DNA of 64,000 bases from Escherichia phage ECML-117. The stretch is taken from the sequence record JX128258, one strand, 5' to 3'. Positions 1 to 60,419 of the stretch are shown here, piece after piece. Position 1 is the first letter of the stretch. The number at the start of each line of letters is the position of its first letter. The notes below the pieces were generated by a model, which searched no databases, was not told where the DNA came from, and saw only the letters and a list, made by a program, of their open reading frames with translations. A program made the translations under genes and the position numbers.

Positions 1-116
1 GCATGACGCTGACCAGACTTTAATTCAATGGGTAAGTTTTGATAAAACTAGCGGCGGAAAGTATCGCTACTATGGCGACGAGCGATTCACCACTAAATTT
101 TATAAGGTACTCGACC

Positions 117-464
117 ATGGCTCATGTTAAAGATGAAACGCTGTATGGCGCAGAGATCAAGAAGCGTGTGCGTGAGATGGCTGAAGGCGGAACATTGCTA
201 CCGCCGCGAGTCCGCTGCGACCACGTGATTGGCGTATCCGGCACGAAGGAGATGGGCGTGTTGGTGAAAGACATTCGCGTTGGGGATGTCATGGTCATCG
301 ACCGACAAGCGCGAGTCGTTATCCAGGTGCAACCGAACGATGATGAAGGATGTGTCCTATTGAAGCTGAAGAAACTTTCATCCAGCCCAGCAAAGGCAGT
401 CATCAAGAAGGTCTGGCCAGAAGGATTACGCAAACTCATTCGTCGACCCGTGGAGAATGTGTGA
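117..464 (+). CDS. hypothetical early protein (about 115 aa)
   Basis: Track ORF 39..464; in-frame ATG at 117 preceded by AAGG; stop overlaps next start (TGATG). Start uncertain. Confidence 0.4.
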   Translation: MAHVKDETLYGAEIKKRVREMAEGGTLLPPRVRCDHVIGVSGTKEMGVLVKDIRVGDVMVIDRQARVVIQVQPNDDEGCVLLKLKKLSSSPAKAVIKKVWPEGLRKLIRRPVENV

Positions 465-700
465 TGGAAGATTATATTAACGCCATGTATATGGCATTCT
501 ATGTCGTTCAACTTCCCAATGGCGCGGTATTTTATGGCGAGTACACCTTTGACGTTCAATATGGCGTTTCAGAGCGTACAGTGTTAACAAGGGAGTTGAT
601 TGCGGACCTTAAGGACGACATCAAGCGCGTCGCGCGGCAGCAGTTCAATTTGGATGACACAGTCATCGTTCGTATAACCGGAATAACAGAGGTGCAGTAA
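464..700 (+). CDS. hypothetical early protein (78 aa)
   Basis: In frame with track ORF 350..700; ATG at 464 overlaps upstream stop; its stop overlaps next start (TAATG), suggesting translational coupling. Confidence 0.45.
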   Translation: MEDYINAMYMAFYVVQLPNGAVFYGEYTFDVQYGVSERTVLTRELIADLKDDIKRVARQQFNLDDTVIVRITGITEVQ

Positions 701-1029
701 TGACCCGTGATCAGATACTCGCCGCGCATGAGCGTGAAAAGGTCAAAGATATTTGTAAAAGGCACAAATCATTTGCCGATTCTTACGCCTTCTTAAAGTC
801 CTGCATCAAGCAAAATGCAAGGATGGATAACACTGTATTGACATTCAACCTTTTGTCTAACGGAGCAAAGCTTGATGCAATATGCGGCTGCAGATTTGCC
901 AGCGTGATGTTTGAAAGATGTGCTCACAAAGACTCTTTCTTCCATCAAGTCTCTCACCGGACGGGTGATACAAAGATAACAAGGACAAGGCACGAGATAG
1001 AGATTGACCTACTCCACTATGTAAAATGA
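700..1029 (+). CDS. hypothetical early protein (109 aa)
   Basis: Track ORF; start overlaps previous stop; same strand as neighbours. Confidence 0.5.
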   Translation: MTRDQILAAHEREKVKDICKRHKSFADSYAFLKSCIKQNARMDNTVLTFNLLSNGAKLDAICGCRFASVMFERCAHKDSFFHQVSHRTGDTKITRTRHEIEIDLLHYVK

Positions 1030-1053
1030 ATATCAAAAAGGTGAGCTAAATGC

Positions 1054-1082
1054 TTGCCTTTTCTTTTATCAATACTTATACT
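1054..1082 (+). promoter_or_regulatory. sigma70-like promoter (TTGCCT-N17-TATACT) in repeated cassette
   Basis: Hexamers read directly; the same about 80-bp cassette (AAAAAGGTGAGCTAAATGCTTGCCTTTT...TATACT) recurs at 2566-2640; precedes gene at 1115. Confidence 0.45.
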
Positions 1083-1114
1083 CTTTTCATCAAGACTAAC
1101 AAGCAAGGTGAATT

Positions 1115-1432
1115 ATGATTTACTTAGGCATCGACCAGGAACAAGACGAGCGGCTAGGAAGCGTGTTAAACGTAGAATTAAACACAGCTGTACACATCAA
1201 GCCTTGGCCAGAGGCGCACCCCGACGTAGTTGTACCCGTTGCACCTTGGACTCGTTACGTTGCCATTGACAATGATGGCCTTGTCCATTGTTACTCAGAA
1301 AAGCCGACATACTTCGAAAAGTATCACCAATGGCTTATGACTGGTTGGGCAAAGGTGCGATGCTGCGGCGAAGTCGGTCTGGAAGGCTGGAGCTTCAAGG
1401 CTAGTGAATCGTGTGTCGAGGTGCAATTATGA
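1115..1432 (+). CDS. hypothetical protein (105 aa)
   Basis: Track ORF; AAGGTG 7 nt upstream of ATG. Confidence 0.55.
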   Translation: MIYLGIDQEQDERLGSVLNVELNTAVHIKPWPEAHPDVVVPVAPWTRYVAIDNDGLVHCYSEKPTYFEKYHQWLMTGWAKVRCCGEVGLEGWSFKASESCVEVQL

Positions 1433-1647
1433 ATGCCGCGCTGGGTAAGCTGTCTTTCAACAAGCGCAATGAGTTGCGCATGGTGTCTCGTTTTCAATTT
1501 TTATTAAATGCTATGTCAAGCGTTGCCATAGCAATGCTTCGCGCTGATTGCCCTGCTGAAAAGCGTGAGACTTTATTCAAGCGTCACCAACAATTACGAA
1601 ATGCTGCTTATAAACTGCAGCAATATGCTATGGAGTATGCAAAATGA
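1429..1647 (+). CDS. hypothetical protein (72 aa)
   Basis: In frame with track ORF 1411..1647; ATG at 1429 overlaps upstream stop (ATGA). Confidence 0.45.
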   Translation: MNAALGKLSFNKRNELRMVSRFQFLLNAMSSVAIAMLRADCPAEKRETLFKRHQQLRNAAYKLQQYAMEYAK

Positions 1648-1928
1648 AGATGCAAAGATGTCCACATTGCTTGTCCACGATGCGGCTTACTGCTGAAGAA
1701 TATTTACATCACGTTAACGTTTGTGAGGCTAATCCTGAAAATTCGACGCGTTACTATTATCACTATCACGCAGAAGCGGAAGATGGATCAGGCGCAACAG
1801 GAATCGTTACCACGAAAGAAATGGTGATCACCAAAAAGGCGTATGAAAGCCTGCTGGATACAATCAAGGAAGTGTCTGGCAAAGAAATAGTCTGCATTAA
1901 ATCTTTATCTTTCTTGCACGAGGTGTGA
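1644..1928 (+). CDS. small C2HC zinc-finger-like protein (94 aa)
   Basis: Track ORF; N-terminal RCPHC...H...C motif; paralogous to the next gene. Confidence 0.5.
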   Translation: MKMQRCPHCLSTMRLTAEEYLHHVNVCEANPENSTRYYYHYHAEAEDGSGATGIVTTKEMVITKKAYESLLDTIKEVSGKEIVCIKSLSFLHEV

Positions 1929-1929
1929 A

Positions 1930-2307
1930 ATGAGAATGAAGCGTTGTCCGTATTGCCACGATGTGATGCATCTTCCGCATGAAGAGTTCGTGCAGCACAT
2001 GACTAATTGTGATAAGAATCCTAAGAGTGAAAGCCAGCTTGAAGAAAGAATGTTTCTGGTGTCATTCAAGTATTCAGCTTACGATGCACAGCCTGCTTAC
2101 GGTGCACCAAGTGCTGTTTACAGACCATTGAGAAGCGACATTGACTCAATGCAGCTTGCGGCCTGGATTAACGTTAAGGAAGGCATCACTCCGCACTTTA
2201 TCGCGCGCATCCAATCTCAGATTCTACAAATCAAGCGCGAATACAACCGTGACATCACTGAAGTGAAGGTGCTTTCCATTACGCCGATGAATAAGGAGTT
2301 GCCGTGA
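1930..2307 (+). CDS. small C2HC zinc-finger-like protein, paralog (125 aa)
   Basis: Track ORF; N-terminus MRMKRCPYCHDVMHLPHEEFVQHMTNC parallels MKMQRCPHCLSTMRLTAEEYLHHVNVC of the previous gene. Confidence 0.5.
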   Translation: MRMKRCPYCHDVMHLPHEEFVQHMTNCDKNPKSESQLEERMFLVSFKYSAYDAQPAYGAPSAVYRPLRSDIDSMQLAAWINVKEGITPHFIARIQSQILQIKREYNRDITEVKVLSITPMNKELP

Positions 2308-2564
2308 ACAAGGGTCCGATGACTAAGTTGGCCGTTGCCGCGCGGAAGCTTCGACAAGCCGTTAATGGGTCGCGGCCCGTGGTGTTGACACTCGACGACG
2401 CAAAGGCGCTGGTAGAGCTACTCGACGAGCACAACCGACGAAAGAATCTGGAGAACACATTACGCTGGCGCGTCACCCCAGCCGGGCGGGAGAGCGAGAA
2501 GAAAGCTTACTTGCGACGCAAACTAATGTCAGTCGGCCTTCACGAAGAGGCGAAGAAGATTTGA
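2304..2564 (+). CDS. hypothetical protein (86 aa, GTG start)
   Basis: Track ORF; GTG start overlapping upstream stop. Confidence 0.4.
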   Translation: MNKGPMTKLAVAARKLRQAVNGSRPVVLTLDDAKALVELLDEHNRRKNLENTLRWRVTPAGRESEKKAYLRRKLMSVGLHEEAKKI

Positions 2565-2586
2565 TTCAAAAAGGTGAGCTAAATGC

Positions 2587-2614
2587 TTGCCTTTTTATTT
2601 GCCTGTATTATACT
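2587..2614 (+). promoter_or_regulatory. sigma70-like promoter (TTGCCT-N16-TATACT), second copy of cassette
   Basis: Near-identical to cassette at 1033-1082; precedes gene at 2643. Confidence 0.45.
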
Positions 2615-2642
2615 TGTTTCATCAAGCAAAGGAGAATTGATT

Positions 2643-2948
2643 ATGAGTACCGAAGCGATGAAGAAAAAGGTTTCGAATGCTTTGCAAGAAGCCGTGAACT
2701 GTGGTGCCATTAAAGAGTTCAAGGAGACTCAAGAAGGCGGTGAGCCAGTATTCTTCTTTAAGAATAAAAAGGACGGTGTTGCAGCAATCATGTTGTTAAA
2801 GAATAGTGATGACACATTTATCCTTTGCGTCGGAGGATATGACCTTATCGTTGATGATGTATTTATCAATTGTGCCGACGGTCTTAACCCTATGCTGACA
2901 TTTGAGCGTCGCACCATCCGTGTTGCAACGTTTGGAGGGAAGTTATGA
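2643..2948 (+). CDS. hypothetical protein (101 aa)
   Basis: In frame with track ORF 2583..2948; ATG at 2643 preceded by AAAGGAGA; N-terminal region similar to product of 3587..4099. Confidence 0.5.
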   Translation: MSTEAMKKKVSNALQEAVNCGAIKEFKETQEGGEPVFFFKNKKDGVAAIMLLKNSDDTFILCVGGYDLIVDDVFINCADGLNPMLTFERRTIRVATFGGKL

Positions 2949-3130
2949 GTACCGAAGTCCACAACGCATCAGCCTTGGTTAGCTTTTACCGTAACAAAGG
3001 CGTGTCGCTCGTTAAAACGCCGCAAGGGATGTTGTTCTTTGGCACGCGATTCCTGAAAGCATCGGAGCGTGAAACGCTGTCCAAGTTCGACCAGAAAACA
3101 TTGCACGCAGTTTGGAGAAGACAACAATGA
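2945..3130 (+). CDS. hypothetical protein (61 aa)
   Basis: Track ORF; start overlaps upstream stop. Confidence 0.4.
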   Translation: MSTEVHNASALVSFYRNKGVSLVKTPQGMLFFGTRFLKASERETLSKFDQKTLHAVWRRQQ

Positions 3131-3420
3131 GACTAAGCCTAGCGCAAATTCAAACATTGTACCGGATGGAAGACGGAACGCCATACATGCTGCGCGGCGA
3201 CCGCAAGAAGGCTTATGAAAAGCGGCCATCACTGTTTCACGACATCAATGCGCCATCAATCCCTGTCTTATTCCGGTTGGGCCTTGTTGATTGGGCGGCG
3301 CCAGGAGAGAAAGACCCGACGCGCTATTCATCCGTGGTGATGACAAAAGCAGGTCGCGCGGCATTAAAAGAGATTAAAGAAAATATGGCTGGAGGTAAAT
3401 ATTATGACATCAAATCTTAA
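3127..3420 (+). CDS. hypothetical protein (97 aa)
   Basis: In frame with track ORF 3112..3420; ATG at 3127 overlaps upstream stop. Confidence 0.4.
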   Translation: MRLSLAQIQTLYRMEDGTPYMLRGDRKKAYEKRPSLFHDINAPSIPVLFRLGLVDWAAPGEKDPTRYSSVVMTKAGRAALKEIKENMAGGKYYDIKS

Positions 3421-3568
3421 AGCCCGTTTATTATTCATCAAGCCGCATGTGCCATATAAGATTAGTAAGCGCACCTGGCTTAACATTTACAACCGCAGCG
3501 GCGACCGTTGTTTGTACAAGGCAAAGCGGCGCAAGAAGGTATATTCTTACACAACATCCATCAAATAA
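3404..3568 (+). CDS. small basic protein (54 aa), not in ORF track
   Basis: ATG at 3404 with GGAGGT 7 nt upstream; translation MTSNLKARLLFIKPHVPYKISKRTWLNIYNRSGDRCLYKAKRRKKVYSYTTSIK; below the track size cut-off. Confidence 0.4.
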   Translation: MTSNLKARLLFIKPHVPYKISKRTWLNIYNRSGDRCLYKAKRRKKVYSYTTSIK

Positions 3569-3586
3569 GACTAGGAGAAGAATAAA

Positions 3587-4099
3587 ATGAAAATCGAACA
3601 ACTCGAAGCAGTATTGGAAATGGCCGTAAAGGCAGGCGCAATCAAAAGCTATCGTCGCGAGAAGTCAGATAGCGATAAGGTGTTTTGTCGCAACTTCTAT
3701 ATCGTTGGCAACCTTAACGACCACTACACCATCGAGTGGTATACTAACGTGATGACCCTTAAGTCGCGCACCATGGAGCTTTGGTGTGATGACATCTGTC
3801 TTTCGAATACTCACCCAAGCTATGATGTCGCCCTGGCATTCTATCACGGAAGCCGTCAACCTGTCGCCCACATCGGTGAGAAGCATGAGCATCTTAAGGC
3901 ACGACCAGAGGAATCAATGGAAGGTTGGATTGAATGGGCTGGCGGAAAGAATCCGGTGCCTGGTAAGATGGTCGAATACAGGCTGCGCAATGAAGGGGAT
4001 AAAGTGCTGTCAAGACTCTCTGACCATCTGCACTGGGCCCATATAGGAGGACTAAAAGGTAGTGACATCATTGCTTATCGGGTCGTTAAGGAGGGATGA
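3587..4099 (+). CDS. hypothetical protein (170 aa)
   Basis: Track ORF; AGGAGAAG upstream; N-terminus resembles product of 2643..2948 (AVKAGAIKSY vs AVNCGAIKEF). Confidence 0.55.
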   Translation: MKIEQLEAVLEMAVKAGAIKSYRREKSDSDKVFCRNFYIVGNLNDHYTIEWYTNVMTLKSRTMELWCDDICLSNTHPSYDVALAFYHGSRQPVAHIGEKHEHLKARPEESMEGWIEWAGGKNPVPGKMVEYRLRNEGDKVLSRLSDHLHWAHIGGLKGSDIIAYRVVKEG

Positions 4100-4548
4100 T
4101 GGGTAAACGCCTTATCGCCGCTGGTTGGGCCATACCGAAGTGGGGTCATCGTGCGCATTACTTTGACGAAGGAGAAGTGCAAAGCCTTTGTGGTCGCGCA
4201 ACGTATTTCGGTGATGAGCGCGTCAGCGGCGATTATATCGACTCGCTTTTAGGCAAAGGTGATTGCAAGAAGTGTCAGAATATATTAAGGGATATTCTTA
4301 CGCAAAAAGGATTGCTTGAGCTTGATGAATCGGAAGAAGTAATTGAACTTAAGCTGGAAGCCAATCACCTTATTAATATGTTCAAGAACTATTACGCAAC
4401 TAATATGCGCTCAAAAATGAGCGAGGAAGTAATAGAAAAGGTGTTCACCTACAATCCGCTAAGGATGAATAAAACCAAATTGAAGAAGTTTAATATAATG
4501 TTAAGGAAAGAATTTAAAAGGCTAGGGGTGAAGAATTTTATATTTTAA
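4096..4548 (+). CDS. hypothetical protein (150 aa)
   Basis: Track ORF; start overlaps upstream stop. Confidence 0.5.
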   Translation: MMGKRLIAAGWAIPKWGHRAHYFDEGEVQSLCGRATYFGDERVSGDYIDSLLGKGDCKKCQNILRDILTQKGLLELDESEEVIELKLEANHLINMFKNYYATNMRSKMSEEVIEKVFTYNPLRMNKTKLKKFNIMLRKEFKRLGVKNFIF

Positions 4549-4566
4549 TAGTGATTAATGTTAAGA

Positions 4567-4590
4567 GGGCCGATTGGCCCTTTTTGTTTG
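4567..4590 (+). terminator. rho-independent terminator (GGGCC-gatt-GGCCC + T-tract)
   Basis: Hairpin and TTTTTGTTT read directly after the stop at 4548. Confidence 0.6.
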
Positions 4591-4874
4591 CCCGTGGGGT
4601 GTGAGTCTTTATTATCGGATAAAGCGATTGATTTGTGTAAATCTATTAGAGGATGGTGGGGAATGAGGATTGTGACGTGATTTGTGTGTCTTGAATATGT
4701 GTGCGGATTTGGAAGAATATTGTACTGTGGTGCTGTGGGATTGGAGAGGGAATCACTAGGTTTTGGGGCGTGTACCGTGGTGTGTGGGCCTGTAGGCTGC
4801 GCCGTCTCTGGGATTGCCGCCTGAAATTTAAAAGGAGATATAGTTAGCTGGCTAACCTTACGTATAGAATTTAA

Positions 4875-5162
4875 GCGTATAATGACGTAAGATTTGGACC
4901 TATCCGTAGTTCACTCCACACACTTCTATGGTGCGCCGCGACTGGGTTCAGTGGTACATCTTACGGATGATACGGATGATACGCGTCGCCGCTATACTTT
5001 ATACAACTTTGAAAAAAACAATTAACTCCATTTTGAATTAATTTAAATTAATTTTTTTCTACATCCTCATACTTATACTAAACTTATGTTTATACGTATT
5101 ATCCGTAAGATATAAGTAAAAACAAAGACTTGCGGCAATACGGATGATACGTCATGATACGC
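4875..5162. promoter_or_regulatory. iteron/AT-rich control element, copy A
   Basis: GCGTATAATGACGTA at 4875-4889; tandem 9-mers in CTTACGGATGATACGGATGATACGCGTCGCCGC at 4960-4992; AT-rich tract 4993-5100; inverted ATCCGTAAG at 5101; ACGGATGATACG at 5140-5151. Homologous to copy B at 20906-21180. Confidence 0.5.
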
Positions 5163-5389
5163 TTCAACCAGCCAGCAGCGGCTAAGTCATTGATTTGCAT
5201 AACAAGCGGCGAAAGGGATGGATTTCTTTTATACGTATCAAACAGTACACCACGCACCACGGTCCGCTATTCATTCAGCACTATGATTTGTGTACTTTTA
5301 CAGCCAATTTGAACATCAATCTGCACTTGAATATAATGTTCATTCATTGTATAATTCACACTATTAATTTGCACTATGGGATTTGCACT

Positions 5390-5863
5390 ATGAGTCAAGA
5401 TTATGTAGCAATGCCTGAAGACTTTGAAGACCCGCGATTTGCAGAGCATAATCAGGCATTATTCGATGAGTTCATTGACCTTGTTATTCAGGGCCATGAC
5501 ATGCGCGCAGCTTTTGCACTAGTATTTGGCATGGAGGTTGCGACCGATAACTACACTGGCCAGCGAATCCTCTGCACGCAACGCAATCCGTACTACAAGA
5601 TGCGCTACAAAAAGCGTATGGAAGAGATGCCATTGAAGGAATTGTGGAGTGTAAAGAGTTCCATCCACAATTTAGTGAAGCTTGTGCGTGATCCAGAAGT
5701 CGCAGCATCAGCCAAGCTTAATGCCATTCGTGAACTGAATATCATCTACGGCATCACGATGATTGATGAGAATGGCAATAGTAAAATGGGCCGTTCCATG
5801 GACGATTTCTACAAGGATTTTGGAGAGGCAGCCAAAGAGGGTGAGCAATTCTCCCGCCACTAG
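5390..5863 (+). CDS. hypothetical protein (157 aa)
   Basis: In frame with track ORF 5195..5863; ATG at 5390 after two TATAAT-like boxes; the start codon overlaps a copy of the ATTTGCACTAT motif. Confidence 0.5.
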   Translation: MSQDYVAMPEDFEDPRFAEHNQALFDEFIDLVIQGHDMRAAFALVFGMEVATDNYTGQRILCTQRNPYYKMRYKKRMEEMPLKELWSVKSSIHNLVKLVRDPEVAASAKLNAIRELNIIYGITMIDENGNSKMGRSMDDFYKDFGEAAKEGEQFSRH

Positions 5864-5882
5864 CCAATTTGCACTATAAAAC

Positions 5883-5916
5883 GGCCCTAGAACACATTTT
5901 CTCCACTTCTAGGGCC
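5883..5916. other. perfect 10-bp stem-loop (GGCCCTAGAA-N14-TTCTAGGGCC)
   Basis: Read directly; lies 20 nt after the stop at 5863; no clear T-tract on the plus strand. Confidence 0.5.
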
Positions 5917-6261
5917 ATCGGTAATACGACGGGGAAGGTTACAACCATAAACGCTTTAGAAAGTGTATTATTATAAGTCATCTTTTAGTCACTTTACGTA
6001 ACAATTTACGACCTTCCGCCGTCCAGTCGAACGACTCCACCAGCAGATTTGCACTATAACCTAAGACGATGCGCCCTTTCTCGTTATCGACCCGCCAACA
6101 AGTCTCGAATAGCATTCGATTTGCACTATTAACTATCGCCGCAACGCGCGTTGGGTAAGCGCAATTTGCACTATGGTCGTAAAGGGATAAGGTGCGACCA
6201 CTTCCGATGGACAACGTAGCGATGAGAATAAGCGTATTCATAAGCCACCAATTTGCACTAT

Positions 6262-6284
6262 GAAAAGCGACCCCGAAGGGCCGC
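6262..6284 (-). terminator. putative rho-independent terminator for minus-strand gene 6292..6918
   Basis: Minus-strand GCGGCCC-ttcg-GGGTCGC hairpin (one mismatch) followed by TTTT. Confidence 0.4.
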
Positions 6285-6291
6285 CATTCGA

Positions 6292-6918
6292 TTAGATAAT
6301 CTGGAATGTGTAGGACTTGTTGCCGAACTCAAAGGTCAAGCGTCCAGCTTCTTTAAGCTTCATGCGGAAGCGAATGTGCTTGCTATCCGGTAATCCCAGC
6401 GCGGCGAACGCTACGCGGACCGATTTGAACTCGCCTACACCTTCGACCATGACGCCGTTACGGGTGAGACGCTTTTGCGCCACTTCCTTGTTATCCCAAC
6501 TTTTTGCAATACCTTCGCTATTCGAACGGCGATGGGAAGGACTGGCAATTTTATCCGCGCCAACCGGAGCATCATTCAGGCCGCTTTTAACGAAGGCTTC
6601 ATATTCTTCGTCGGTCATCGCGTCGAGTTCTTCCTGGGTCGGCTCCGCTTTTTTAACGACCGCACGCGCTTTGTGCGTTTTTACATCGCTGGACACTTCC
6701 TCGCGCGGCTTCGCGTCTGGGATGGGCGATTCGTTGGACGGCTCATCGAGCGCGTTTAAGGACTCGATTAACGCGATGACGCGAGTCTCAGCGGTGCGAC
6801 GGTCCGCAAACTTCTTAATCGGTTTTGAGCCGGAGTTAGCGTTATAGAATGCAACGAGGTCGGCGGTCTTAGTTGCGATAACGTCGCCGCTAGTAGAGAA
6901 ACGATTCAAGCTAACCAT
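6292..6918 (-). CDS. hypothetical protein (208 aa) with acidic central linker
   Basis: Track ORF; AGGAG upstream on minus strand; antisense plus-strand ORFs are Ser-rich and low-complexity; CpG-rich composition. Confidence 0.6.
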   Translation of the reverse strand: MVSLNRFSTSGDVIATKTADLVAFYNANSGSKPIKKFADRRTAETRVIALIESLNALDEPSNESPIPDAKPREEVSSDVKTHKARAVVKKAEPTQEELDAMTDEEYEAFVKSGLNDAPVGADKIASPSHRRSNSEGIAKSWDNKEVAQKRLTRNGVMVEGVGEFKSVRVAFAALGLPDSKHIRFRMKLKEAGRLTFEFGNKSYTFQII

Positions 6919-6987
6919 AATAAACTCCTAGTTTGGGAGCGGCGTTAACGACCTATTCGCTAACTCATCCCGTCCCGATATGAGTAC

Positions 6988-7015
6988 ATTATAATATAGT
7001 GTAGAAAAAAGTAAA
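6988..7015 (-). promoter_or_regulatory. sigma70-like promoter (TTTACT-N16-TATAAT) for 6292..6918
   Basis: Minus-strand read GTGCTTTACT...TATAATGTACTCATATCGGGACGGGATGAGTTAGCGAATAGGTCG is homologous to the plus-strand module upstream of 7554. Confidence 0.45.
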
Positions 7016-7059
7016 GCACTTTTTCGATAAAAATGCGATAAATTATTTTATCTTTTTTC

Positions 7060-7087
7060 TTTACTTCTTCGTACACTCGCGTATACT
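7060..7087 (+). promoter_or_regulatory. sigma70-like promoter (TTTACT-N16-TATACT) for 7144..7446
   Basis: CTTTACTTCTTCGTACACT shared with promoter at 7458; followed by TGTTTATATCGAGACGGG leader. Confidence 0.45.
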
Positions 7088-7143
7088 TGTTTATATCGAG
7101 ACGGGCGATGGCCCTTCCTTCTACTAGCATCGGGAGCTTTATT

Positions 7144-7446
7144 ATGACTACTTTAATCTCTTCCATCCTTACTTACGACGAAGACCGTTTAACCGTTCGC
7201 TCTCTTATCGCCGCCGTTAACGCGGAACTAGAATCTAGCGCCATTAAGGTCCGCGCGGTCGCCTTCATCGGCCTTTCCTTCGACGATATGAAGTACGCCG
7301 AACGTAGCGCCATCCGCTTCGCGAAGACCGACGACGAAGCCGTTACCCTTATCGAGACGGTTACGCCGCGCGGCGAAGCGTTAATTATCGTCGAGTATAT
7401 CGACGTAGAAGGCGATAAATCTTATAAACATTTTATCGCAGAATGA
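7144..7446 (+). CDS. small acidic protein (100 aa)
   Basis: In frame with track ORF 7087..7446; ATG at 7144 after GGGAG; codon usage rich in CpG, almost no CTG/CAG. Confidence 0.55.
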   Translation: MTTLISSILTYDEDRLTVRSLIAAVNAELESSAIKVRAVAFIGLSFDDMKYAERSAIRFAKTDDEAVTLIETVTPRGEALIIVEYIDVEGDKSYKHFIAE

Positions 7447-7457
7447 CGAAAAAGTGC

Positions 7458-7486
7458 TTTACTTCTTCGTACACTAAGACTATAAT
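7458..7486 (+). promoter_or_regulatory. sigma70-like promoter (TTTACT-N17-TATAAT) for 7554..7844
   Basis: Hexamers read directly; duplicated module of 7060-7087. Confidence 0.5.
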
Positions 7487-7508
7487 GTTTTATATCGAGA
7501 GGGGATGA

Positions 7509-7529
7509 GGTAGCGAATAGGTCGCTACC
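7509..7529 (+). other. leader stem-loop (GGTAGCGA-atagg-TCGCTACC) in 5' UTR
   Basis: 8-bp perfect stem between promoter and RBS; a related imperfect copy lies in the minus-strand leader of 6292..6918. Confidence 0.45.
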
Positions 7530-7553
7530 CTCCCGACTAACTAGGAGAATATT

Positions 7554-7844
7554 ATGATTACTTTAGCCGCTATCCGTTCCGCTCGCGTCGAAACTTCCGA
7601 AAACTCTAACGTATTTGGCGAAACCTTAGAGAGCGTTTATCTCTCTAACGTAGACGCAACTATCGAGTCTATTTATGAGCCGATCAACTTTCTCGACCTT
7701 TACAAGTATCGCGACGAGGACATCGTATCCTACCGCGTAACGATTAACGGCTTCGTTTATACGATCACCGAAATCGGCGGCGAATATATAGCTGTACCGC
7801 AACTCGGCGGCGAAGTAACTTACTTTAAAATCGTAAGCCTTTAA
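7554..7844 (+). CDS. small acidic protein (96 aa)
   Basis: Track ORF; AGGAGAA upstream; same unusual codon usage as 7144..7446; similar size and N-terminus (MITLAAI vs MTTLISSI). Confidence 0.6.
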   Translation: MITLAAIRSARVETSENSNVFGETLESVYLSNVDATIESIYEPINFLDLYKYRDEDIVSYRVTINGFVYTITEIGGEYIAVPQLGGEVTYFKIVSL

Positions 7845-7855
7845 GGAGAAGAAAG

Positions 7856-8065
7856 ATGACTAATATGAATAACTCTCTTAACGCGCGCGCCCATCGCACC
7901 GCCGTAATCGATATGTTTCGCGAGCTTAAGGAATTATGCGATAATATGAACGCGATGTTATCCATCGGCGGCTGGGGATACGAAGAAGAAGTTAAATACG
8001 CGGTTATGCGTCGCCGTCGCGATAACGTCCTTGGACAAATTAAACGCGCCGGATTATTCCTTTAA
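7856..8065 (+). CDS. hypothetical protein (69 aa)
   Basis: Track ORF; AAGGAGAAGAAAG upstream; same codon usage; followed by terminator. Confidence 0.55.
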   Translation: MTNMNNSLNARAHRTAVIDMFRELKELCDNMNAMLSIGGWGYEEEVKYAVMRRRRDNVLGQIKRAGLFL

Positions 8066-8091
8066 TTATAATCACCCACCGTTACTAATAG

Positions 8092-8116
8092 GCCGCGCTT
8101 AGTCGCGGCTTTTCTT
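8092..8116 (+). terminator. rho-independent terminator (GCCGCG-cttagt-CGCGGC + TTTTCTT)
   Basis: Read directly after the stop at 8065. Confidence 0.6.
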
Positions 8117-8586
8117 CGTCCCTATCTCAATGCGCTTCTCCGCGAAAATTCCTTTATCCTTCCCTTCGTCGTCGCATAATCTTCGTCGAGATGCTCCTTA
8201 GTTCGCATAACGGGTATTACGTTAAATGGAGAACATCGCGTAAGTCCTTGTTTTATATAGACACCTATATCGGACCGTTAAGGCGGGTCGCGTAAGTCGT
8301 TGTTTTATAAAGGCGCAAAACTTTCCCTTCGTTCCGAACTAAAACGAGAAATATGCGGACCCTTCGCCCGAAAATAGTACGCATGCGAAATTACCGACAT
8401 CTAGAATAATCCCCGCCGATATTATCCTACACGCAATCATTAGCCTTCGAATCATTATGCTTCATATTATTATGCATCGAATCATTCGCTTTCGAATTGT
8501 AACGCTGGAAACTGTAACGGCGATTGATTATTGCGTTCGTGTGGTTTTTATGGCATGGGTCTTTTGGTGCGTTTTGGTACTTGATG

Positions 8587-8709
8587 AAATTTGCAGTACA
8601 CTAATCAAAATACGACACATTTGGTCCACTAACTTTTCAAAGAAAAAGTCCTAGACAGTACCGTACTATTTTGTGCCCACAGTAAATTTGCAGTACACTC
8701 CTGCGCGGC
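8587..8709 (+). repeat. two copies of 16-bp motif AAATTTGCAGTACACT
   Basis: Exact copies at 8587-8602 and 8694-8709; shares the ATTTGCA core with the 11-bp array at 5367-6261. Confidence 0.7.
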
Positions 8710-8767
8710 AGGCAAAGAAAGGGCCGCCACAGCGACCCACGATTCACGGTTAAATCAGCAACACCCA

Positions 8768-9178
8768 CTATTCGCTCTTATGGGCATCACCAAAGCCATC
8801 CGCAATCTGGCTGATCAATGATTCAATGGACACAGTTTTACCAATTGATCGAGCGGTAATAGCAAGCATATTATCAATCAAACCATGATTGGATGCATAT
8901 GGTCCAGGTTTTGAATCATCTTCAGGACAGCCAAAAAGCTGGTCGCGCAAACTTTCGAGAGAACGCTCAATATTTTCCAGCTTCTCTTCTAAATCAGATT
9001 GGCGACGTAAAACCCATGTTAAGTCTCGGTTGCCGACTTCCAACCCATCAGAATCGCAAGCTGGAACGTCAATTTTGATGCTGCCACCAAAGGCCATTCC
9101 GCTGCCTTTAGTATATGTGTTGTGAATAGAATCATTCTTATTTGACATATCATTACCTTTCATGAGGGTGATTAACAA
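8768..9178 (-). CDS. hypothetical protein (136 aa)
   Basis: Track ORF on minus strand; start may be an internal Met. Confidence 0.5.
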   Translation of the reverse strand: MLITLMKGNDMSNKNDSIHNTYTKGSGMAFGGSIKIDVPACDSDGLEVGNRDLTWVLRRQSDLEEKLENIERSLESLRDQLFGCPEDDSKPGPYASNHGLIDNMLAITARSIGKTVSIESLISQIADGFGDAHKSE

Positions 9179-9208
9179 TAACTATAATAAAGCCGCATAG
9201 CGCGGCAT

Positions 9209-9469
9209 TCAAATCGGTTTGTTAATTGTAACGATTGGATTCATCAATCGATACCAACTGTGCTGGGTCGCCGGATACGGTCGAGCCAATGATACCCATC
9301 TGCTGAAAGAACTCTGAATAAACTTCCTTCCAGTATCTACGCGCTGCTTTCTGAGCCTGCCTTTGCGCTTGAAGCTTTTACCTTGAAAGATGAAACGGTC
9401 GCTTGCCGCTCGATACTCCACCACACCTTCCAGCCATTGTAAGAACGCTACTGATTCATTCTGATTCAT
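9209..9469 (-). CDS. hypothetical protein (86 aa)
   Basis: Track ORF on minus strand. Confidence 0.4.
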   Translation of the reverse strand: MNQNESVAFLQWLEGVVEYRAASDRFIFQGKSFKRKGRLRKQRVDTGRKFIQSSFSRWVSLARPYPATQHSWYRLMNPIVTINKPI

Positions 9470-9476
9470 GTTAACC

Positions 9477-9932
9477 TCAATATTTTAATAAGAAAGCACC
9501 CAACCAACTTTCCTCAATCTCGCGGCCAGTAGCCACACGGTCGGTCTTTGCTATGGGTCTGGATTCGCCGCAAGGTAATCCGTCTTGCAGTTGTGTACTA
9601 TTGCCAATTCTCACCATGACCTTTCCATCAGGGTCGATATAAGCGCGACAACCCATGATTTCGAGTCGTTGTAGACACTGGCGAATCGTTTTCAGCCTTT
9701 CACCGGACCGGATAGAGCGCGGTCGCGACCGCTGACCGTTCTTATTCACTGTCCGCTTAACGACCGGAATCTCATTGGTGCGTTTCGCTTTCGGTCGGTA
9801 ATAGGCTTCTTCGCCAGGAGTCGCACCTGGCGTCAATTCACGCTTGAGCGCCTTTTCAATATCGATGATCATAATTATGCCGCAGCAGCGTGGATGATTA
9901 CGTAAACTATGCCAAATAGCGCGGCAATACAT
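9477..9932 (-). CDS. hypothetical basic protein (up to 151 aa)
   Basis: Track ORF; the Cys/His-rich N-terminal extension looks unnatural, so the start may be the internal Met at 9872. Confidence 0.45.
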   Translation of the reverse strand: MYCRAIWHSLRNHPRCCGIIMIIDIEKALKRELTPGATPGEEAYYRPKAKRTNEIPVVKRTVNKNGQRSRPRSIRSGERLKTIRQCLQRLEIMGCRAYIDPDGKVMVRIGNSTQLQDGLPCGESRPIAKTDRVATGREIEESWLGAFLLKY

Positions 9933-9965
9933 ACCGTGCCCCAGAATGCAAAGCGTCGTGACTCT

Positions 9966-10187
9966 TTATCCATTGTCCACCGCTCCAATATCCTTCAAGA
10001 ACTTGTGCAAGTCACCTTTCTTATTAAGCTTTTGCATAGTTTTGATATCATCAAGTGATATGCCTTGATCGCTTTGTTGTTTGTCAATGCAGACAATGCC
10101 GCCTTTCTTGGCCTTGATTGTCATGCCTTTGGCTTCAATACTTTTTACGAAATCGGACAATAATTTAATTTCCATAATACACCTCAC
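9966..10187 (-). CDS. hypothetical protein (73 aa)
   Basis: Track ORF on minus strand. Confidence 0.4.
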   Translation of the reverse strand: MRCIMEIKLLSDFVKSIEAKGMTIKAKKGGIVCIDKQQSDQGISLDDIKTMQKLNKKGDLHKFLKDIGAVDNG

Positions 10188-10256
10188 TTGTTAACGTATA
10201 ATGAGTATAACTTAATAGCGCATAAAGTAAAGGCGCTTTTCAGCGCCTTGAGTGAA

Positions 10257-12614
10257 TTATTTTGCTGCTTTCAGCGCGGCTATTTCTGCCTTTAGTTCAT
10301 CTATCTGATCCATCAATGCAAGAATTGCCTCGTGATGGAGTGCTGCTGCAACGCCAGAAGTGTTTACTGACTTTACGTCATCCAGAATTGACCCATCACG
10401 CAGGGTGACTGGTGATGATTTTGTTTCTGATACGGCTTCAGGGAAGTCTTTCTCTACGTCCTGCGCGATGAATCCGTATCCGATTGAGCCATTTGTCTCC
10501 AGGACCCATGTGACCCCTTTGATGTTTCTCATCTTGGAGAGCGGATTACTGATGCGCTCAATGTTGCTTTTAATTCTTTCGTCAGATGTGCTTCGCCATT
10601 CCTGGCATCTTGCTATGCCGTCAGCACCAAATAGATAAGAGGCACTGCTGCCAATGCCATTCAAAATGTTAAGTTGCGCACGGTCCAATGCTGTTGTGCC
10701 ACTTCTGACTCCGCCAAGCATCCAATTCCCGTCATACCAGTCGCCGCCAACGGAGTTTATATAGCCTCCTTCTGGCACATTCGCGTAGTTGATCATCCTG
10801 ATGGCATTTCTTTCTGAAGCTGCCACCCCGACTGAATTCAACGGTTGTGCAACGACATCCTTGGGCCTTACGTATGCGTCAATGTGTAATGCGCCGTCAG
10901 GCCTTAGTGTGCCAATTTGAGTCTCTGCGCTTGGGAAGTACAAAGTCCCAGCTTGGTTGAATGACCATTCTTGCACCCCATTAGATATCACCGCACCTTG
11001 TTCAGATGTTAATCCATCAATTTTTCCGTATGCCTGCAAGAATGCTTGATACGCAACGTTCGTGCCAATCTTATATTCAGATTTTACACTACCGCCTCTG
11101 ACAAGCGTTCCGGCTGCAGGTTTTACTGCGTCGCCGTTAATCACACTCCAAGAAGTATTCGCGGCAACAAATCCACCCGATGCACGAATCACCCAAACGC
11201 CAACAAAGTTGCGACCCATGATTTCGTCAGTTGCCGCTCCATAAATCGGGCTTGATCTGGATGCATCAATATTTATTGTATTGAGACGCCCCTCCACTGC
11301 CCCGCTTCCAACAGGTATGGTGTCGCCGCCGCCTTGGGGGTACAAATCGTTGTTTGTGTAAAAAGCACCTCGGACGGCTGTGCCAAAGATTTGCGCATAA
11401 GTGCCTGCCGATACACCAGCAGCTGAGCCTGTGATGTTTGGTGCAGCAGATTCAAATATTTGACCGTTCGCAGTGGAGTTGCCGCCATCACCGCGCCCGT
11501 AAAGCGCCCGTACAGAGCCTGTCTGGACACCGTTAAGGTCTGGGACACGGAATGTCGTTGTGCCGTTACCTGAAGAATATTTTGCACGTTTGAACTTATC
11601 CGCAAGCCAGTCGGCATCTGCGATGGGTGAAAGCATCTGCGCATACGCCCAAAGTTCAGGCCAGTCAGCACGGTTTAGCAATTGCCCGTCTGCAACGACT
11701 TCGTATGGCTGAATATATGATCTACTATTGCGAAGATGGAAATCGCCAACACCATAGTTCATGACACCGTTCATACTTGGGCCAACGGTGCCTGTGTTTA
11801 CTAAGTTTTCAACCCAACGCTTAGTCGCGGCATCATAATCATTTACAGGGTCGCCAGCGAGCGGCGTTGATCCTTGTGGACGGATGTTTAGCCACGCCTG
11901 AGCATTATCTGCAGAGCCTGTGCCGCCCATTGAAGTTGGAACGATGCTCTGATCAGCAACAGGGCCGAATCCGAAAGCAGTCTTCATTCCTTGAATGGTG
12001 GTCTGCCCAGTTCCGCCATTTGCAATTGGAATCGTGCTTTGCGTACTATACATTTGCACCCAATCCGACCAGGATGATGAGCCAGCATTGTATAGCCTTT
12101 GGTATATGGCGTTGATCCAATAAGGCGTATATCTTTGGACGCAGCTTTCTCCTGCGACGCCAGTATTGTAAACTTCAAGAATACCAGCTTGTGAGACTGG
12201 ATAGTTCAGCGCCGATGATGCACCAGCATTTGCTGATTGATGATATTGACCAAACCATGAACCAGTCAAGGCATTGAGATTTATTCCGTTAGGAATCTCT
12301 CCAAAGTTTCGGACAGTACCCGTCAAAGTTGCGGCAGTGGTTCGAATAGAAAGCATGTCGCCAGCCGCCCATGCACGCGCTGCAGTCCCTTCTTGTGCAC
12401 GCTGCACGGTCAGGACGTTTCCAACAACGGCTGTTACTGTGACGATTTCGAATTGGAGGCCTGTTGCAGCGTCGACGATTGTCGCCACTACACGCTCGTT
12501 TGCGCCCAAGGTCGGAAAGCCCGACCCTGAGCGAATTGTGATTGTGGTGTCTGAAGTCGTCGTTGGTTGAGCCAGCGCGACCTCAAAGTTGTTTTTGAAT
12601 ATTAGCCTTGGCAT
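10257..12614 (-). CDS. tail spike/fibre protein with C-terminal intramolecular chaperone (S74-type autoproteolytic) domain
   Basis: 785 aa; Gly/Ser/Thr/Asn-rich fibrous body; C-terminal segment containing SDERIKSNIE and a terminal coiled coil, as in endosialidase-type chaperone domains. Confidence 0.7.
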   Translation of the reverse strand: MPRLIFKNNFEVALAQPTTTSDTTITIRSGSGFPTLGANERVVATIVDAATGLQFEIVTVTAVVGNVLTVQRAQEGTAARAWAAGDMLSIRTTAATLTGTVRNFGEIPNGINLNALTGSWFGQYHQSANAGASSALNYPVSQAGILEVYNTGVAGESCVQRYTPYWINAIYQRLYNAGSSSWSDWVQMYSTQSTIPIANGGTGQTTIQGMKTAFGFGPVADQSIVPTSMGGTGSADNAQAWLNIRPQGSTPLAGDPVNDYDAATKRWVENLVNTGTVGPSMNGVMNYGVGDFHLRNSRSYIQPYEVVADGQLLNRADWPELWAYAQMLSPIADADWLADKFKRAKYSSGNGTTTFRVPDLNGVQTGSVRALYGRGDGGNSTANGQIFESAAPNITGSAAGVSAGTYAQIFGTAVRGAFYTNNDLYPQGGGDTIPVGSGAVEGRLNTINIDASRSSPIYGAATDEIMGRNFVGVWVIRASGGFVAANTSWSVINGDAVKPAAGTLVRGGSVKSEYKIGTNVAYQAFLQAYGKIDGLTSEQGAVISNGVQEWSFNQAGTLYFPSAETQIGTLRPDGALHIDAYVRPKDVVAQPLNSVGVAASERNAIRMINYANVPEGGYINSVGGDWYDGNWMLGGVRSGTTALDRAQLNILNGIGSSASYLFGADGIARCQEWRSTSDERIKSNIERISNPLSKMRNIKGVTWVLETNGSIGYGFIAQDVEKDFPEAVSETKSSPVTLRDGSILDDVKSVNTSGVAAALHHEAILALMDQIDELKAEIAALKAAK

Positions 12615-20905: not shown

Positions 20906-21180
20906 GCGTATAATGACGTATCATCCGTATCAAGTAAGTAGTTGTTTTCAAAAGAATCTTACGGATGATACGGATGATACGCGTTGCCGCGATACTTTAT
21001 AGGAATTCAAATAAATTAATTTAAAATTATATATCTAATTTAATTTTATTTTTTTATAAACTCTTATATATGAAAAGTATCCGTATCATCCGTATCATCC
21101 GTAGCACACCAGTGATAGCGCGGCTTATACACCGATACGGATAAAAAATACGCCTCATCTTATCCGTATCATCCGTATCA
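20906..21180. promoter_or_regulatory. iteron/AT-rich control element, copy B
   Basis: GCGTATAATGACGTA at 20906-20920; CTTACGGATGATACGGATGATACGCGTTGCCGC at 20958-20990; AT-rich tract 21001-21075; inverted triple ATCCGTATCATCCGTATCATCCGTA at 21079-21103; inverted double at 21162-21180. Confidence 0.55.
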
Positions 21181-21289: not shown

Positions 21290-22708
21290 ATGCGAATGCA
21301 AACGGCACGCGAAATTGACAAAAATGGATTCTTGACGATTGTGGGTTGTCCCATTTCGTCATTTGGCATTTTTGATTATTCTGCAGGTCAGGTTGGACTT
21401 GATGGTGATCCGAATCGCATCGTAAAAGTTTATCGCCCAGAGTCAGCGGTGAAAGACCCCGAAGCGATAGATTCATTCAAAAATATCCCTTTCATCGACA
21501 ATCACGAAATGCTTTCTGGATTCGAAGGTGATGAGGATAACACAGCACCCGAAGAGTATGGCGTTGATGGCGTTCTAACTGGCAATGTTTATTATGACAA
21601 GCCATGGATGCGCGGCGACCTTAAAGTTTTTAGCCGTCGTCTGAAGAAGGCCATCGACTCTGGAAAGGTTGACTTGTCTTTGGGCTATGACTGTGAATTC
21701 ATCATACAGTCTGGAGAGTTTGACGGGCAGCCGTATGAAGTGGTACAGACAACTCTTCGCGGCAACCACATTGCTCTCGTGGACGTTGGTCGAGTACCAG
21801 GTGCACGGGTGCTGGATGGTCGTTGCTTTGACCATCTTTGTTTGACGACTGTAACACCATCCAACGAGGATTTAGACATGCCAAAACCGTTAAAAGGTAA
21901 AGCGCGTGATAATGCTGTTGAACAGCTGAAATCACTGATCCCTGCGCTCGAACAATTTCTGAATGAAGAGAGCACCGAAGCTGCTCATCAGGACGAAGTT
22001 GAAGTGAAAGCAGAAGAGAAGGATTCAACCGAAGAACGTGAAGAAGTGATGGTTGATCCAGAAGTCAAAGCAGAAGCTGAAGAGACTCCAGAAGGTGAAG
22101 AGAAGTTTGAATTTGAAACTGAATCTCACGCTGGCGGCGAGCTTCCGCAACTGATCAGCCAAATCGAAGCACTTATTGCAAAACTGAAAGGTGGCGCGGT
22201 AGGTGATGAAGAAGAAGTTGAAGCCGAAGTCAAAGACGAAGAAGTTGAAGTCAAGGCTGAAGATGTATCACCTTGCGACAAAGCTGAAGATGTGGTTAGC
22301 GGCCTGCAAAACAGCAACGTAAAGGGGGCTTCGGTCGAAAAAGATGACAAACCGACAAAAGCGGCGAAAGCGTCGCCAGGTCCAGCAAAAGGGGAACACT
22401 CAATGGCATCTGATTCAGCAGTTGCTGCTTTCTACGCTGATTCTGCTCGTAAGAATAGCCTCTACCAGCGCCTGTCTAAAGTTGTTGGTGCCTTTGATCA
22501 TGCAACTATGGACTCCAAGTCCGTAGCGAAATATGGCGCTAAAAAGTTAGGCTTGAAGTGCGTTGATGGTGCTGAGTTTGACGTGGTGGATAATTATCTG
22601 CGCGGCGTTGAACACGGTCAAAAACAGCGTGTAGTCGCAAAACAAAAGGCCGCTGCGGATTCTGCAGCAACTGACGAAGCGTTTGAAGCTTGGTTGAAAG
22701 GGGAATAA
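21290..22708 (+). CDS. prohead scaffold/protease-like protein with acidic low-complexity centre
   Basis: 472 aa; Glu/Lys/Ala-rich acidic repeats (EVEVKAEE...); lies immediately upstream of the capsid gene. Confidence 0.55.
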   Translation: MRMQTAREIDKNGFLTIVGCPISSFGIFDYSAGQVGLDGDPNRIVKVYRPESAVKDPEAIDSFKNIPFIDNHEMLSGFEGDEDNTAPEEYGVDGVLTGNVYYDKPWMRGDLKVFSRRLKKAIDSGKVDLSLGYDCEFIIQSGEFDGQPYEVVQTTLRGNHIALVDVGRVPGARVLDGRCFDHLCLTTVTPSNEDLDMPKPLKGKARDNAVEQLKSLIPALEQFLNEESTEAAHQDEVEVKAEEKDSTEEREEVMVDPEVKAEAEETPEGEEKFEFETESHAGGELPQLISQIEALIAKLKGGAVGDEEEVEAEVKDEEVEVKAEDVSPCDKAEDVVSGLQNSNVKGASVEKDDKPTKAAKASPGPAKGEHSMASDSAVAAFYADSARKNSLYQRLSKVVGAFDHATMDSKSVAKYGAKKLGLKCVDGAEFDVVDNYLRGVEHGQKQRVVAKQKAAADSAATDEAFEAWLKGE

Positions 22709-60093: not shown

Positions 60094-60419
60094 TATAACT
60101 CCACTACGCTTTCAAGGTCCAGATATACTGGAATAAAATGGCAATCTTCTTTTCGTTCAAACATCTCACCGTCAACTCGGCTGAAGAAAACAGTCGTGTT
60201 TGGTATCTTCCACCCTTGCTCGTCGCGCACCAGGTACGCCATGGATTCAACAGGGATGTAAAGTGATACCGGATTTGCGGCAAAGATGAATTTGATTCTG
60301 TCTGGTTGACCCAGGAATCGCATAATTGTAAGACTTGAATTCAGTCTTGTATTAAGGAAGGACTCAACGATGCCGACGTGTGTTGCACGTTCGCGTTGCT
60401 TCGTATCTTTTTCGTTCAT
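60093..60419 (-). CDS. hypothetical protein (108 aa)
   Basis: Track ORF. Confidence 0.45.
   Translation of the reverse strand: MNEKDTKQRERATHVGIVESFLNTRLNSSLTIMRFLGQPDRIKFIFAANPVSLYIPVESMAYLVRDEQGWKIPNTTVFFSRVDGEMFERKEDCHFIPVYLDLESVVEL

Follow-up and report, generated by a model that had tools for sequence, protein, structure and literature searches.

The terminal region of the Escherichia phage ECML-117 genome carries an array of short direct repeats wrapped around terS, the gene of the small terminase subunit. Conserved and previously undescribed, this array is a DNA element that acts in cis and is linked to the genome end, most likely as a terminase or genome-end recognition signal. The analysis covered a 64,000-nucleotide stretch of record JX128258 (the window), in which the 11-mer ATTTGCACTAT occurs exactly seven times, every copy on the plus strand (Table 1). 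The original prediction, made from the letters of the window, had placed this recurrence beyond chance, and both its positions and its judgement held: dinucleotide-preserving shuffles gave a mean of 0.05 matches, and none of 100 shuffles reached seven. The consensus of the array word is A-T-Y-Y-G-C-A-C-T-A-Y, with an invariant GCACTA core. The gaps between consecutive copies are 14, 486, 180, 72, 45 and 87 bp, and close doublets 12-15 bp apart recur in the array, in the window as in relatives. Degenerate copies lie at ~5274-5284 (core GCACTA at 5278), at 5354 (ATTCACACTAT) and, inside terS, at 5512-5522 (TTTTGCACTAG). A scan allowing up to two mismatches added only the 5354 and 5512 matches of the same patch, plus two 16-mers treated below. 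A CRISPR array needs a regular periodicity and repeats of 24-48 bp; the array consists of irregularly spaced 11-mers, and that explanation is rejected, as the original prediction had already argued.

To place the array on the physical genome, the window was compared with the Wifcevirus phages, E. coli myoviruses of 66-72 kb that include Mansfield, WFH, Ro157lw and Bas98-101 and to which it is ~93-96% identical. The phage of the window is itself a Wifcevirus, with a genome of about 68 kb. The PhageTerm-predicted direct terminal repeat (DTR) of Mansfield (1..3673) maps onto window positions 5030 and 8564|8565. The WFH and Ro157lw records hold both repeat copies, and their ends match the same boundaries; the WFC record ends at the position corresponding to window 8645, 81 bp beyond the right boundary. 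Because the Mansfield, WFH and Ro157lw boundaries fall at these two positions, the gene 'island' of the original prediction is the DTR. The array spans 5367-6261 within this repeat and starts 337 bp inside the left terminus. When aligned across genera, the left-terminal 360 bp are poorly conserved. A turn in GC skew also falls at the genome end, but it is uninformative about an origin because gene orientation switches at the same place.

Table 1. Coordinates of the repeat array and associated features in the window (ORF, open reading frame)
Feature	Position	Strand	Remark
Direct terminal repeat, ~3.5 kb	5030..8564	.	left genome end 5030; right boundary 8564|8565
Tandem sigma-70-like promoters (putative), TTGAAC-17-TATAAT and TTGAAT-17-TATAAT	5309..5355	+	consensus scan, 10/12 positions each
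Motif copies 1 and 2	5367-5377, 5381-5391	+	14 bp apart, between promoters and terS
terS, small terminase subunit, 157 aa	5390..5863	+	match to PDB 7uxe
Chi variant CCACTAGC	5857-5864	+	directly 5' of motif copy 3
Motif copy 3	5867-5877	+	adjoins T-tract of minus-strand terminator hairpin (~5880-5915)
87-aa ORF (ORF87), hydrophobic N-terminal segment	5978..6241	-	homologues in relatives
CCACCAGC	6037-6044	+	directly 5' of motif copy 4
Motif copy 4	6047-6057	+	inside ORF87
Motif copies 5 and 6	6119-6129, 6164-6174	+	inside ORF87
Motif copy 7	6251-6261	+	between ORF87 start and minus-strand terminator (~6267-6287) of 208-aa gene
208-aa early gene, phrog_4730	6292..6918	-	conserved throughout phage family
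Boundary box 1, GGTACTTGATGAAATTTGCAGTACACTAATCA, includes first 16-mer	8576..8605	+	begins 12 bp right of DTR boundary
Boundary box 2, second 16-mer	8684..8699	+	exact repeat

The motif is exclusive to this locus. A whole-genome scan, proposed with the original prediction, was run on the complete Bas99 genome (68,355 bp), and all nine TYYGCACTAY sites fell within 1.2 kb around terS (59159-60355), with none on the minus strand. The motif does not recur at similar density through the genome, since its Bas99 sites are confined to the terS locus. The same one-sided concentration is found in a 72-kb metagenomic relative (L006), whose TerS is 70% identical to that of the window and which has 10 GCACTA sites near terS; in Pantoea phage Kyle (L016; TerS 44% to the window), with 14 in the first 1.5 kb; and in Pantoea phage PA1 (TerS 60% to that of Kyle), with 13 near terS. 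None of the three has a site on the minus strand, and the enrichment is significant in each (Poisson p = 1e-10 to 3e-13, computed against a first-order background). Parts of the layout are also conserved. The GCACTATTAAC site of copy 5 keeps its position in the window, L006, Kyle and PA1, while L006 has a doublet/triplet equivalent to copies 1 and 2 and the same arrangement around copy 7. The motif is absent from MTx, PCSE1, E217, tabernarius and 10 metagenomic TerS loci; a search of those lineages for equivalent arrays revealed just scattered lineage-specific repeats, with no clear family-wide pattern. Footprinting within Wifcevirus itself has little power, because its members are ~95% identical across the whole region.

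Coding sequence that overlaps the array provides further evidence. The stretch 5864-6291 had been described as gene-poor, but it is not gene-free: three motif copies lie within the minus-strand ORF87, which is a real gene judging by its conservation in L006 (58% identity), Kyle, PA1 and MTx. ORF87 carries copies 4-6 in antisense, each translated as xSAN. Across the ORF87 family, all 10 xSAN tetrapeptides are encoded as xxT-AGT-GCR-AAT, the reverse complement of the motif, although the number of SAN sites per homologue varies between phages from 1 to 4. The homologue in MTx, a phage without the array, has no SAN at those positions. Similarly, Bas99 and WFC carry two extra motif copies, 14 bp apart, in the variable linker of the 208-aa protein (Bas99 60341-60365; L047 10341-10365), where the doublet turns DAPVGADKIAS into DSANCVVQNGT. 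The single fixed codon set and this linker doublet indicate that selection acts on the DNA and that the word drives the peptide. The motif is thus a cis-acting signal under selection as DNA, most plausibly a site of protein binding, and the xSAN codon set is a clean example of a DNA signal overwriting protein sequence.

The enclosed gene is that of the small terminase. Its product matches the 'Small terminase' of PDB 7uxe (phmmer, E = 9e-33, residues 3-147), and the same gene is annotated in Mansfield as terminase small subunit via HHpred. Pfam gave no match for TerS, and PHROGs placed it in phrog_4783, a family without a named function; homologues occur in Pbunavirus (E217, PB1), Myosmarvirus MTx, Kylevirus and others. 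In Bas99, terL lies at 1..1428 and terS ~9 kb away by the shorter arc of the circular map, and the related phage E217 also has terS far from terL (PMC9611059). With terS inside the terminal repeat, each virion DNA holds two copies of the gene.

We tentatively favour the reading that the array is a pac/cosB-like recognition site of the phage's own terminase. TerS made from the gene embedded in the array would bind about 10 same-oriented ATTYGCACTAY sites, beginning 337 bp inside the left terminus. The bound array would then mark phage concatemers and place the large subunit so that it cuts at 5029|5030, and the boxes just right of 8564 would serve the other repeat boundary. This reading is favoured because the array wraps an orphan terS and adjoins the terminus, and because the close doublets would suit the DNA-binding domains of a ring-shaped oligomer. 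It is also favoured by TerL, which falls in the Pbunavirus and P22/Sf6-type headful lineage, in which pac is located in or next to terS; P22 has its pac site inside that gene (PMC9611059). As expected of such a site, copies flank terS and one degenerate copy lies inside it. The first copy is near the terminus at 5030, but more distant than classical sites are from theirs, and a conserved box 12-35 bp from the right boundary is better placed. Known sites of this kind include the lambda cosB R-sites next to Nu1, the SPP1 pacL/pacR boxes and the P1 pac hexamer arrays. Like the array, such sites consist of short repeated words in or beside terS, near the cut and specific to one locus. They differ in extent, covering ~100-200 bp as against 0.9-1.2 kb here, and the array has 7-14 copies in a single orientation, many of them inside genes. 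Moreover, pac/cosB systems have cohesive or headful ends, whereas the phage of the window has exact 3.5-kb terminal repeats. A separate observation is that the nearest TerL relatives outside the family are P22/Sf6-type headful terminases, yet these phages have fixed ends.

The two 16-mers belong to a different element. The original prediction had reported two exact copies of AAATTTGCAGTACACT at the edge of the island. The count and the first position (8587) were right, but the second copy is at 8684-8699 rather than 8694-8709, and the two are found 23 and 120 bp beyond the right end of the DTR. The first is part of a larger box with the general form GTACYTRG..AAATTYVC..GTACACTAAT, ~30 bp long. 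In Kyle, the box GTACCTGGTCCAATTTCACAGTACACTAATCA lies ~12-43 bp past the boundary at 3603, its GTACACT part beginning 33 bp past, and it is identical to the window box at 17 of 18 positions over CAGTACACTAATCA.AAT, again beside the right DTR boundary. PA1 has a related copy, although its boundary itself is not mapped; in MTx, a related sequence follows the right boundary and GCGTACACTAAC is found at the left end. Two box copies are present in each of the window, Kyle and PA1, the second in Kyle and PA1 being 340-460 bp from the first (L016 3615-3645 and ~3950-3985; L045 ~6245-6290 and ~6705-6750). Since the flanks diverge, the box constitutes a phylogenetic footprint, and it probably belongs to a boundary or cleavage signal. 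In Kylevirus (Kyle, PA1) the box reads AATTTCACA-GTACACTAAT or AAATTCACC-GTACACTAA, while the array sites there stay TTYGCACTAY. Because the first half of the box differs while the array word persists, the ATTTGCA core that had been taken to link 11-mer and 16-mers is probably a superficial and incidental overlap. The 16-mers are an element separate from the 11-mer array.

Several observations weigh against recognition of the array by the terminase. With its irregular, unphased spacing the array extends across 0.9-1.2 kb, much wider than the familiar pac/cosB sites; its start is 337 bp away from the cut, and 2.3 kb separate it from the other boundary. The conserved boundary boxes are better placed than the array as a cleavage-site signal. 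The TerS homologues of MTx, PCSE1 and Pbunavirus come without the motif or a clearly equivalent array, and the E217 TerS, the solved homologue, showed no appreciable DNA binding in vitro (PMC9611059). Finally, a very similar word occurs in the terminal repeats of phage T5 and of a 122-kb T5-like contig; as no protein homology was found between the repeat regions and no T5-like phage appeared among the terminase relatives, such a likeness would suggest some other reader.

In T5, this word forms direct repeat D (DRD), nine copies of TGTGCAAATCCGACA (reverse complement GGATTTGCACA) at 9672-10409 of AY587007, in a single orientation and irregularly spaced. They straddle the end of the 10,139-bp terminal repeat, and two of the nine show the T/C variation (GGATTCGCACA) seen in Kyle and WFC. 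Like the array, DRD combines an ATTYGCAC core with about nine same-oriented, irregular copies in the long DTR of a virulent enterobacterial phage. By coordinate reading, GTGCAAAT lies on the strand with its 3' end at the nearby terminus both in the right repeat copy of T5 and in the left copy of the window. In the 122-kb phage contig, presumably Pectobacterium phage My1, the non-coding part of the T5-like terminal-repeat region contains TCGGATTTGCAC(T/A) at least 10 times, and several of these copies read GGATTTGCACTA. There are also clear differences. The invariant part is CGGATTYGCACA in T5 and GCACTAY in the window; the T5 copies occupy non-coding DNA at the inner boundary, whereas the window array lies 0.3-1.2 kb from the outer left end and has three copies inside ORF87. 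When the DRD core GGATTYGCAC was looked for in the window, three of the seven copies read GATTTGCAC and just copy 2 (GGGATTTGCAC) has the second G. A tblastx comparison of window 4500-9500 with the T5 left terminal repeat and two loci of the 122-kb contig gave no match at 1e-2, and no T5-like phage is listed among the relatives of TerL or of TerS. The link arose from a scan of viral contigs for motif doublets that returned more than 120 matches, about chance level by our own estimate. Most of the other matches were unrelated tandem repeats, iterons or 14-kb inverted-terminal-repeat contigs with different flanks. The T5 resemblance could be chance, and is best treated as a lead rather than a demonstrated relationship.

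Chi sites show a comparable polarity in the relatives. The word CCACCAGC on the plus strand is the complement of Chi. Chi is not enriched in the window, where the DTR holds one copy and one variant and the whole-window count is near chance. Kyle, however, has nine CCACCAGC in its first 2 kb (L016 255-1972) and PA1 has seven (L045 2465-4037), each with none in the other orientation, and the Serratia phage MTx has several (L007/L035 163-1283) with none opposite. In Kyle and PA1 the Chi sites are interleaved with the motif array and share its strand, irregular spacing and embedding in genes. Chi in these arrays lies on the strand whose 3' end is the left terminus, which is the orientation recognised by RecBCD entering from the left end. 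Thus, Chi clusters near phage DNA ends resemble the array in being oriented, irregular and gene-embedded, and in Kyle and PA1 they occupy the same place, but they differ in sequence and are not enriched in the window. A fixed Chi-motif pairing was considered and rejected, since order and distance vary; for the same reason the two signals are regarded as independent despite their common zone and polarity. The motif itself is not Chi, as it reads ATAGTGCAAAT on the corresponding strand, against 5'-GCTGGTGG-3' for Chi.

These likenesses raise a second explanation, which we consider possible but unlikely: the array would be a polar, Chi-like end signal of the T5 DRD kind, read or bound by a factor of host or phage origin, or by a DNA translocase entering or passing the genome end, while DNA enters the cell, ends are protected or the terminal repeats recombine. 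The interleaving of 7-9 same-strand Chi sites with the array within the first 2 kb of Kyle and PA1 is consistent with it, as are the same-oriented, irregular DRD copies at the T5 terminal-repeat end, the similar copies of the 122-kb contig and the strand polarity toward the terminus common to T5 and the window. RecBCD recognises GCTGGTGG and not the array word, which counts against this explanation, and no candidate reader is known. The T5 link, moreover, came from a scan with about a chance-level number of matches, no protein homology was found between the DTR of the window and the T5 or 122-kb-contig repeat regions, and the T5 repeats are non-coding and lie at the inner repeat boundary, away from the outer end of the left copy. 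DRD itself has no known function (10.1101/866236). A broader version, somewhat less probable still, would unite the Wifcevirus, Kylevirus and T5-like GTGCAAAT/ATTYGCAC arrays as one class of polar end-proximal signal with a common reader; in that case the reader would probably be a host factor, or else the machinery for DNA entry or packaging. Next to the right DTR boundary, on its inner side, TCGAATCATT / TAATCATT repeats (8440-8490; L016 3535-3595) resemble the 'direct repeat C' of T5 (GAATCATT; region L168 9468-9637), and window 8470-8487 contains 11-mers common to T5 DRC1 and the 122-kb T5-like contig.

Direct repeats at a single locus also bring a replication origin to mind. The array would then be an iteron-like initiator-loading site bound by the primase-helicase or another initiator, a role that we regard as improbable. 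Short same-oriented repeats present at one locus only would fit such a site, a primase with a VapE-like domain and several helicases are among the phage's gene products, and unrelated viral contigs have TTTGCACTAC in regular 22-24-bp iteron-like arrays. A possible precedent is the origin of satellite phage P4 (ori/crr), which has short repeated octamers. Plasmid and phage iterons, those octamers included, are likewise direct repeats at one locus, bound by one protein. They are, however, typically 17-22 bp long, regular and beside the initiator gene, so that the iterons suggested in the original prediction fit poorly with an 11-12-bp unit, a spacing of 14-486 bp, and terS and small early genes as neighbours. 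Neither an adjacent initiator gene nor an obvious AT-rich unwinding element was found at the array, and most Kyle and PA1 copies lie inside genes. DnaA boxes were rejected separately. Against their consensus TT(A/T)TNCACA (10.1101/866236), ATTTGCACT mismatches at positions 1 and 9, and position 4 is C in many Kyle sites; what stays invariant in the array is GCACTA, not CACA.

The transcriptional context of terS bears on a regulatory role. The tandem sigma-70-like promoter pair, whose function is inferred only from its match to consensus, sits just upstream of copies 1 and 2 and of terS, and copy 2 does cover part of the ATG at 5390, as had been claimed. The gene converges with a leftward early unit composed of the 208-aa gene, a terminator, ORF87 and a second terminator. 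This last hairpin corresponds to a terminator annotated in the WFH record at 853..888(-). A sequence search of the PDB with the 208-aa protein gave nothing useful. Given this layout, the copies could be an operator or roadblock for a phage regulator, controlling terS or insulating it from the leftward early unit. Copies 1 and 2 stand between promoters and start codon, copies 3 and 7 adjoin minus-strand terminators, and the DTR encodes a small protein of a 'transcriptional regulator' PHROG (phrog_10377, 7856..8065). We nevertheless give an operator little credence: 7-14 copies are excessive, and most of those in Kyle and PA1 are inside genes. Kyle and PA1 also lack copies between promoter and terS start, so that a role at the terS promoter is not general. 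In addition, the repeat shared with the other late-gene upstream region (20917-21174) is ACGGATGATACGG, not the array motif. The absence of copies from the Kyle and PA1 terS leaders also led us to reject an antisense RNA, in which the terS leader would pair with repeats of the leftward transcript.

The ACGGATGATACGG repeats (five on the plus and four on the minus strand of the window) occur at 4955-5155 and 20906-21174, accompanied at both places by a promoter-like ~45-bp unit and an AT-rich tract. The first region spans the left genome end, upstream of terS, and the second precedes a head-protease homologue (21290..22708) and its operon. Since the 4955-5000 copy lies to the left of the physical end, transcription from it could reach terS only where the DNA is concatemeric or circular. 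As a transcription-control element, ACGGATGATACGG is a better candidate than the array motif.

That the copies serve as promoters of a phage-specific RNA polymerase or sigma factor is hardly credible. The original prediction had noted that the ACTAT end recalls the promoter cores of single-subunit polymerases, and a loose likeness to T7-type cores does exist. Yet the annotation of the complete Bas99 genome lists neither an RNA polymerase nor a sigma factor, and the motif lies upstream of no other gene there; the copies are confined to a single patch of 0.9 kb; and the direction of five of the seven, into the 3' ends of convergent genes, is wrong for promoters. Sigma-54, sigma-70 and phage promoter readings were all rejected by inspection and gene orientation. 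No RNA family accounts for the motif either: an Rfam scan of 4500-9500 gave one sub-threshold match only, and there are no tRNA genes. Pfam and NCBIfam searches of the DTR proteins returned no matches.

The array offers a concrete sequence to test for a TerS family that includes those of the therapeutic Pseudomonas phages E217 and PB1. For this family, no DNA target is reported in the review cited above (PMC9611059). If the array is a packaging signal, it would explain why terS stands alone at the genome end, and it would offer a way to engineer Wifcevirus phages or to use them in transduction; the BASEL paper describes these phages as very fast-replicating (PMC11990801). If instead it is related to T5 repeat D, long-terminal-repeat phages would have an unexplained end signal in common. 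Should the one-class polar signal prove true, it would be a second Chi-like word at phage DNA ends, would serve unrelated long-terminal-repeat phages of Enterobacterales and would give T5 DRD a function.

Further repeats were recorded elsewhere in the DTR. Two inverted-repeat pairs, 6946-6981/7492-7527 (36 nt, 89% complementarity) and 6997-7026/7447-7476 (30 nt, 90%), bracket a 100-aa gene (7144..7446), amounting to a promoter-leader module duplicated in opposite orientations. Early sigma-70-like promoters at 6988-7026, 7059-7087 and 7457-7486 share GTGCTTTACTTYTTYSTACACTA-N4-TATAAT/TATACT, and their spacers hold GTACACT, a word also present in the boundary boxes. Two copies of TCGCGTAAGTC(C/G)TTGTTTTATA, at 8236-8260 and 8288-8312, are found in the 700 bp of non-coding DNA within which the right DTR boundary falls.

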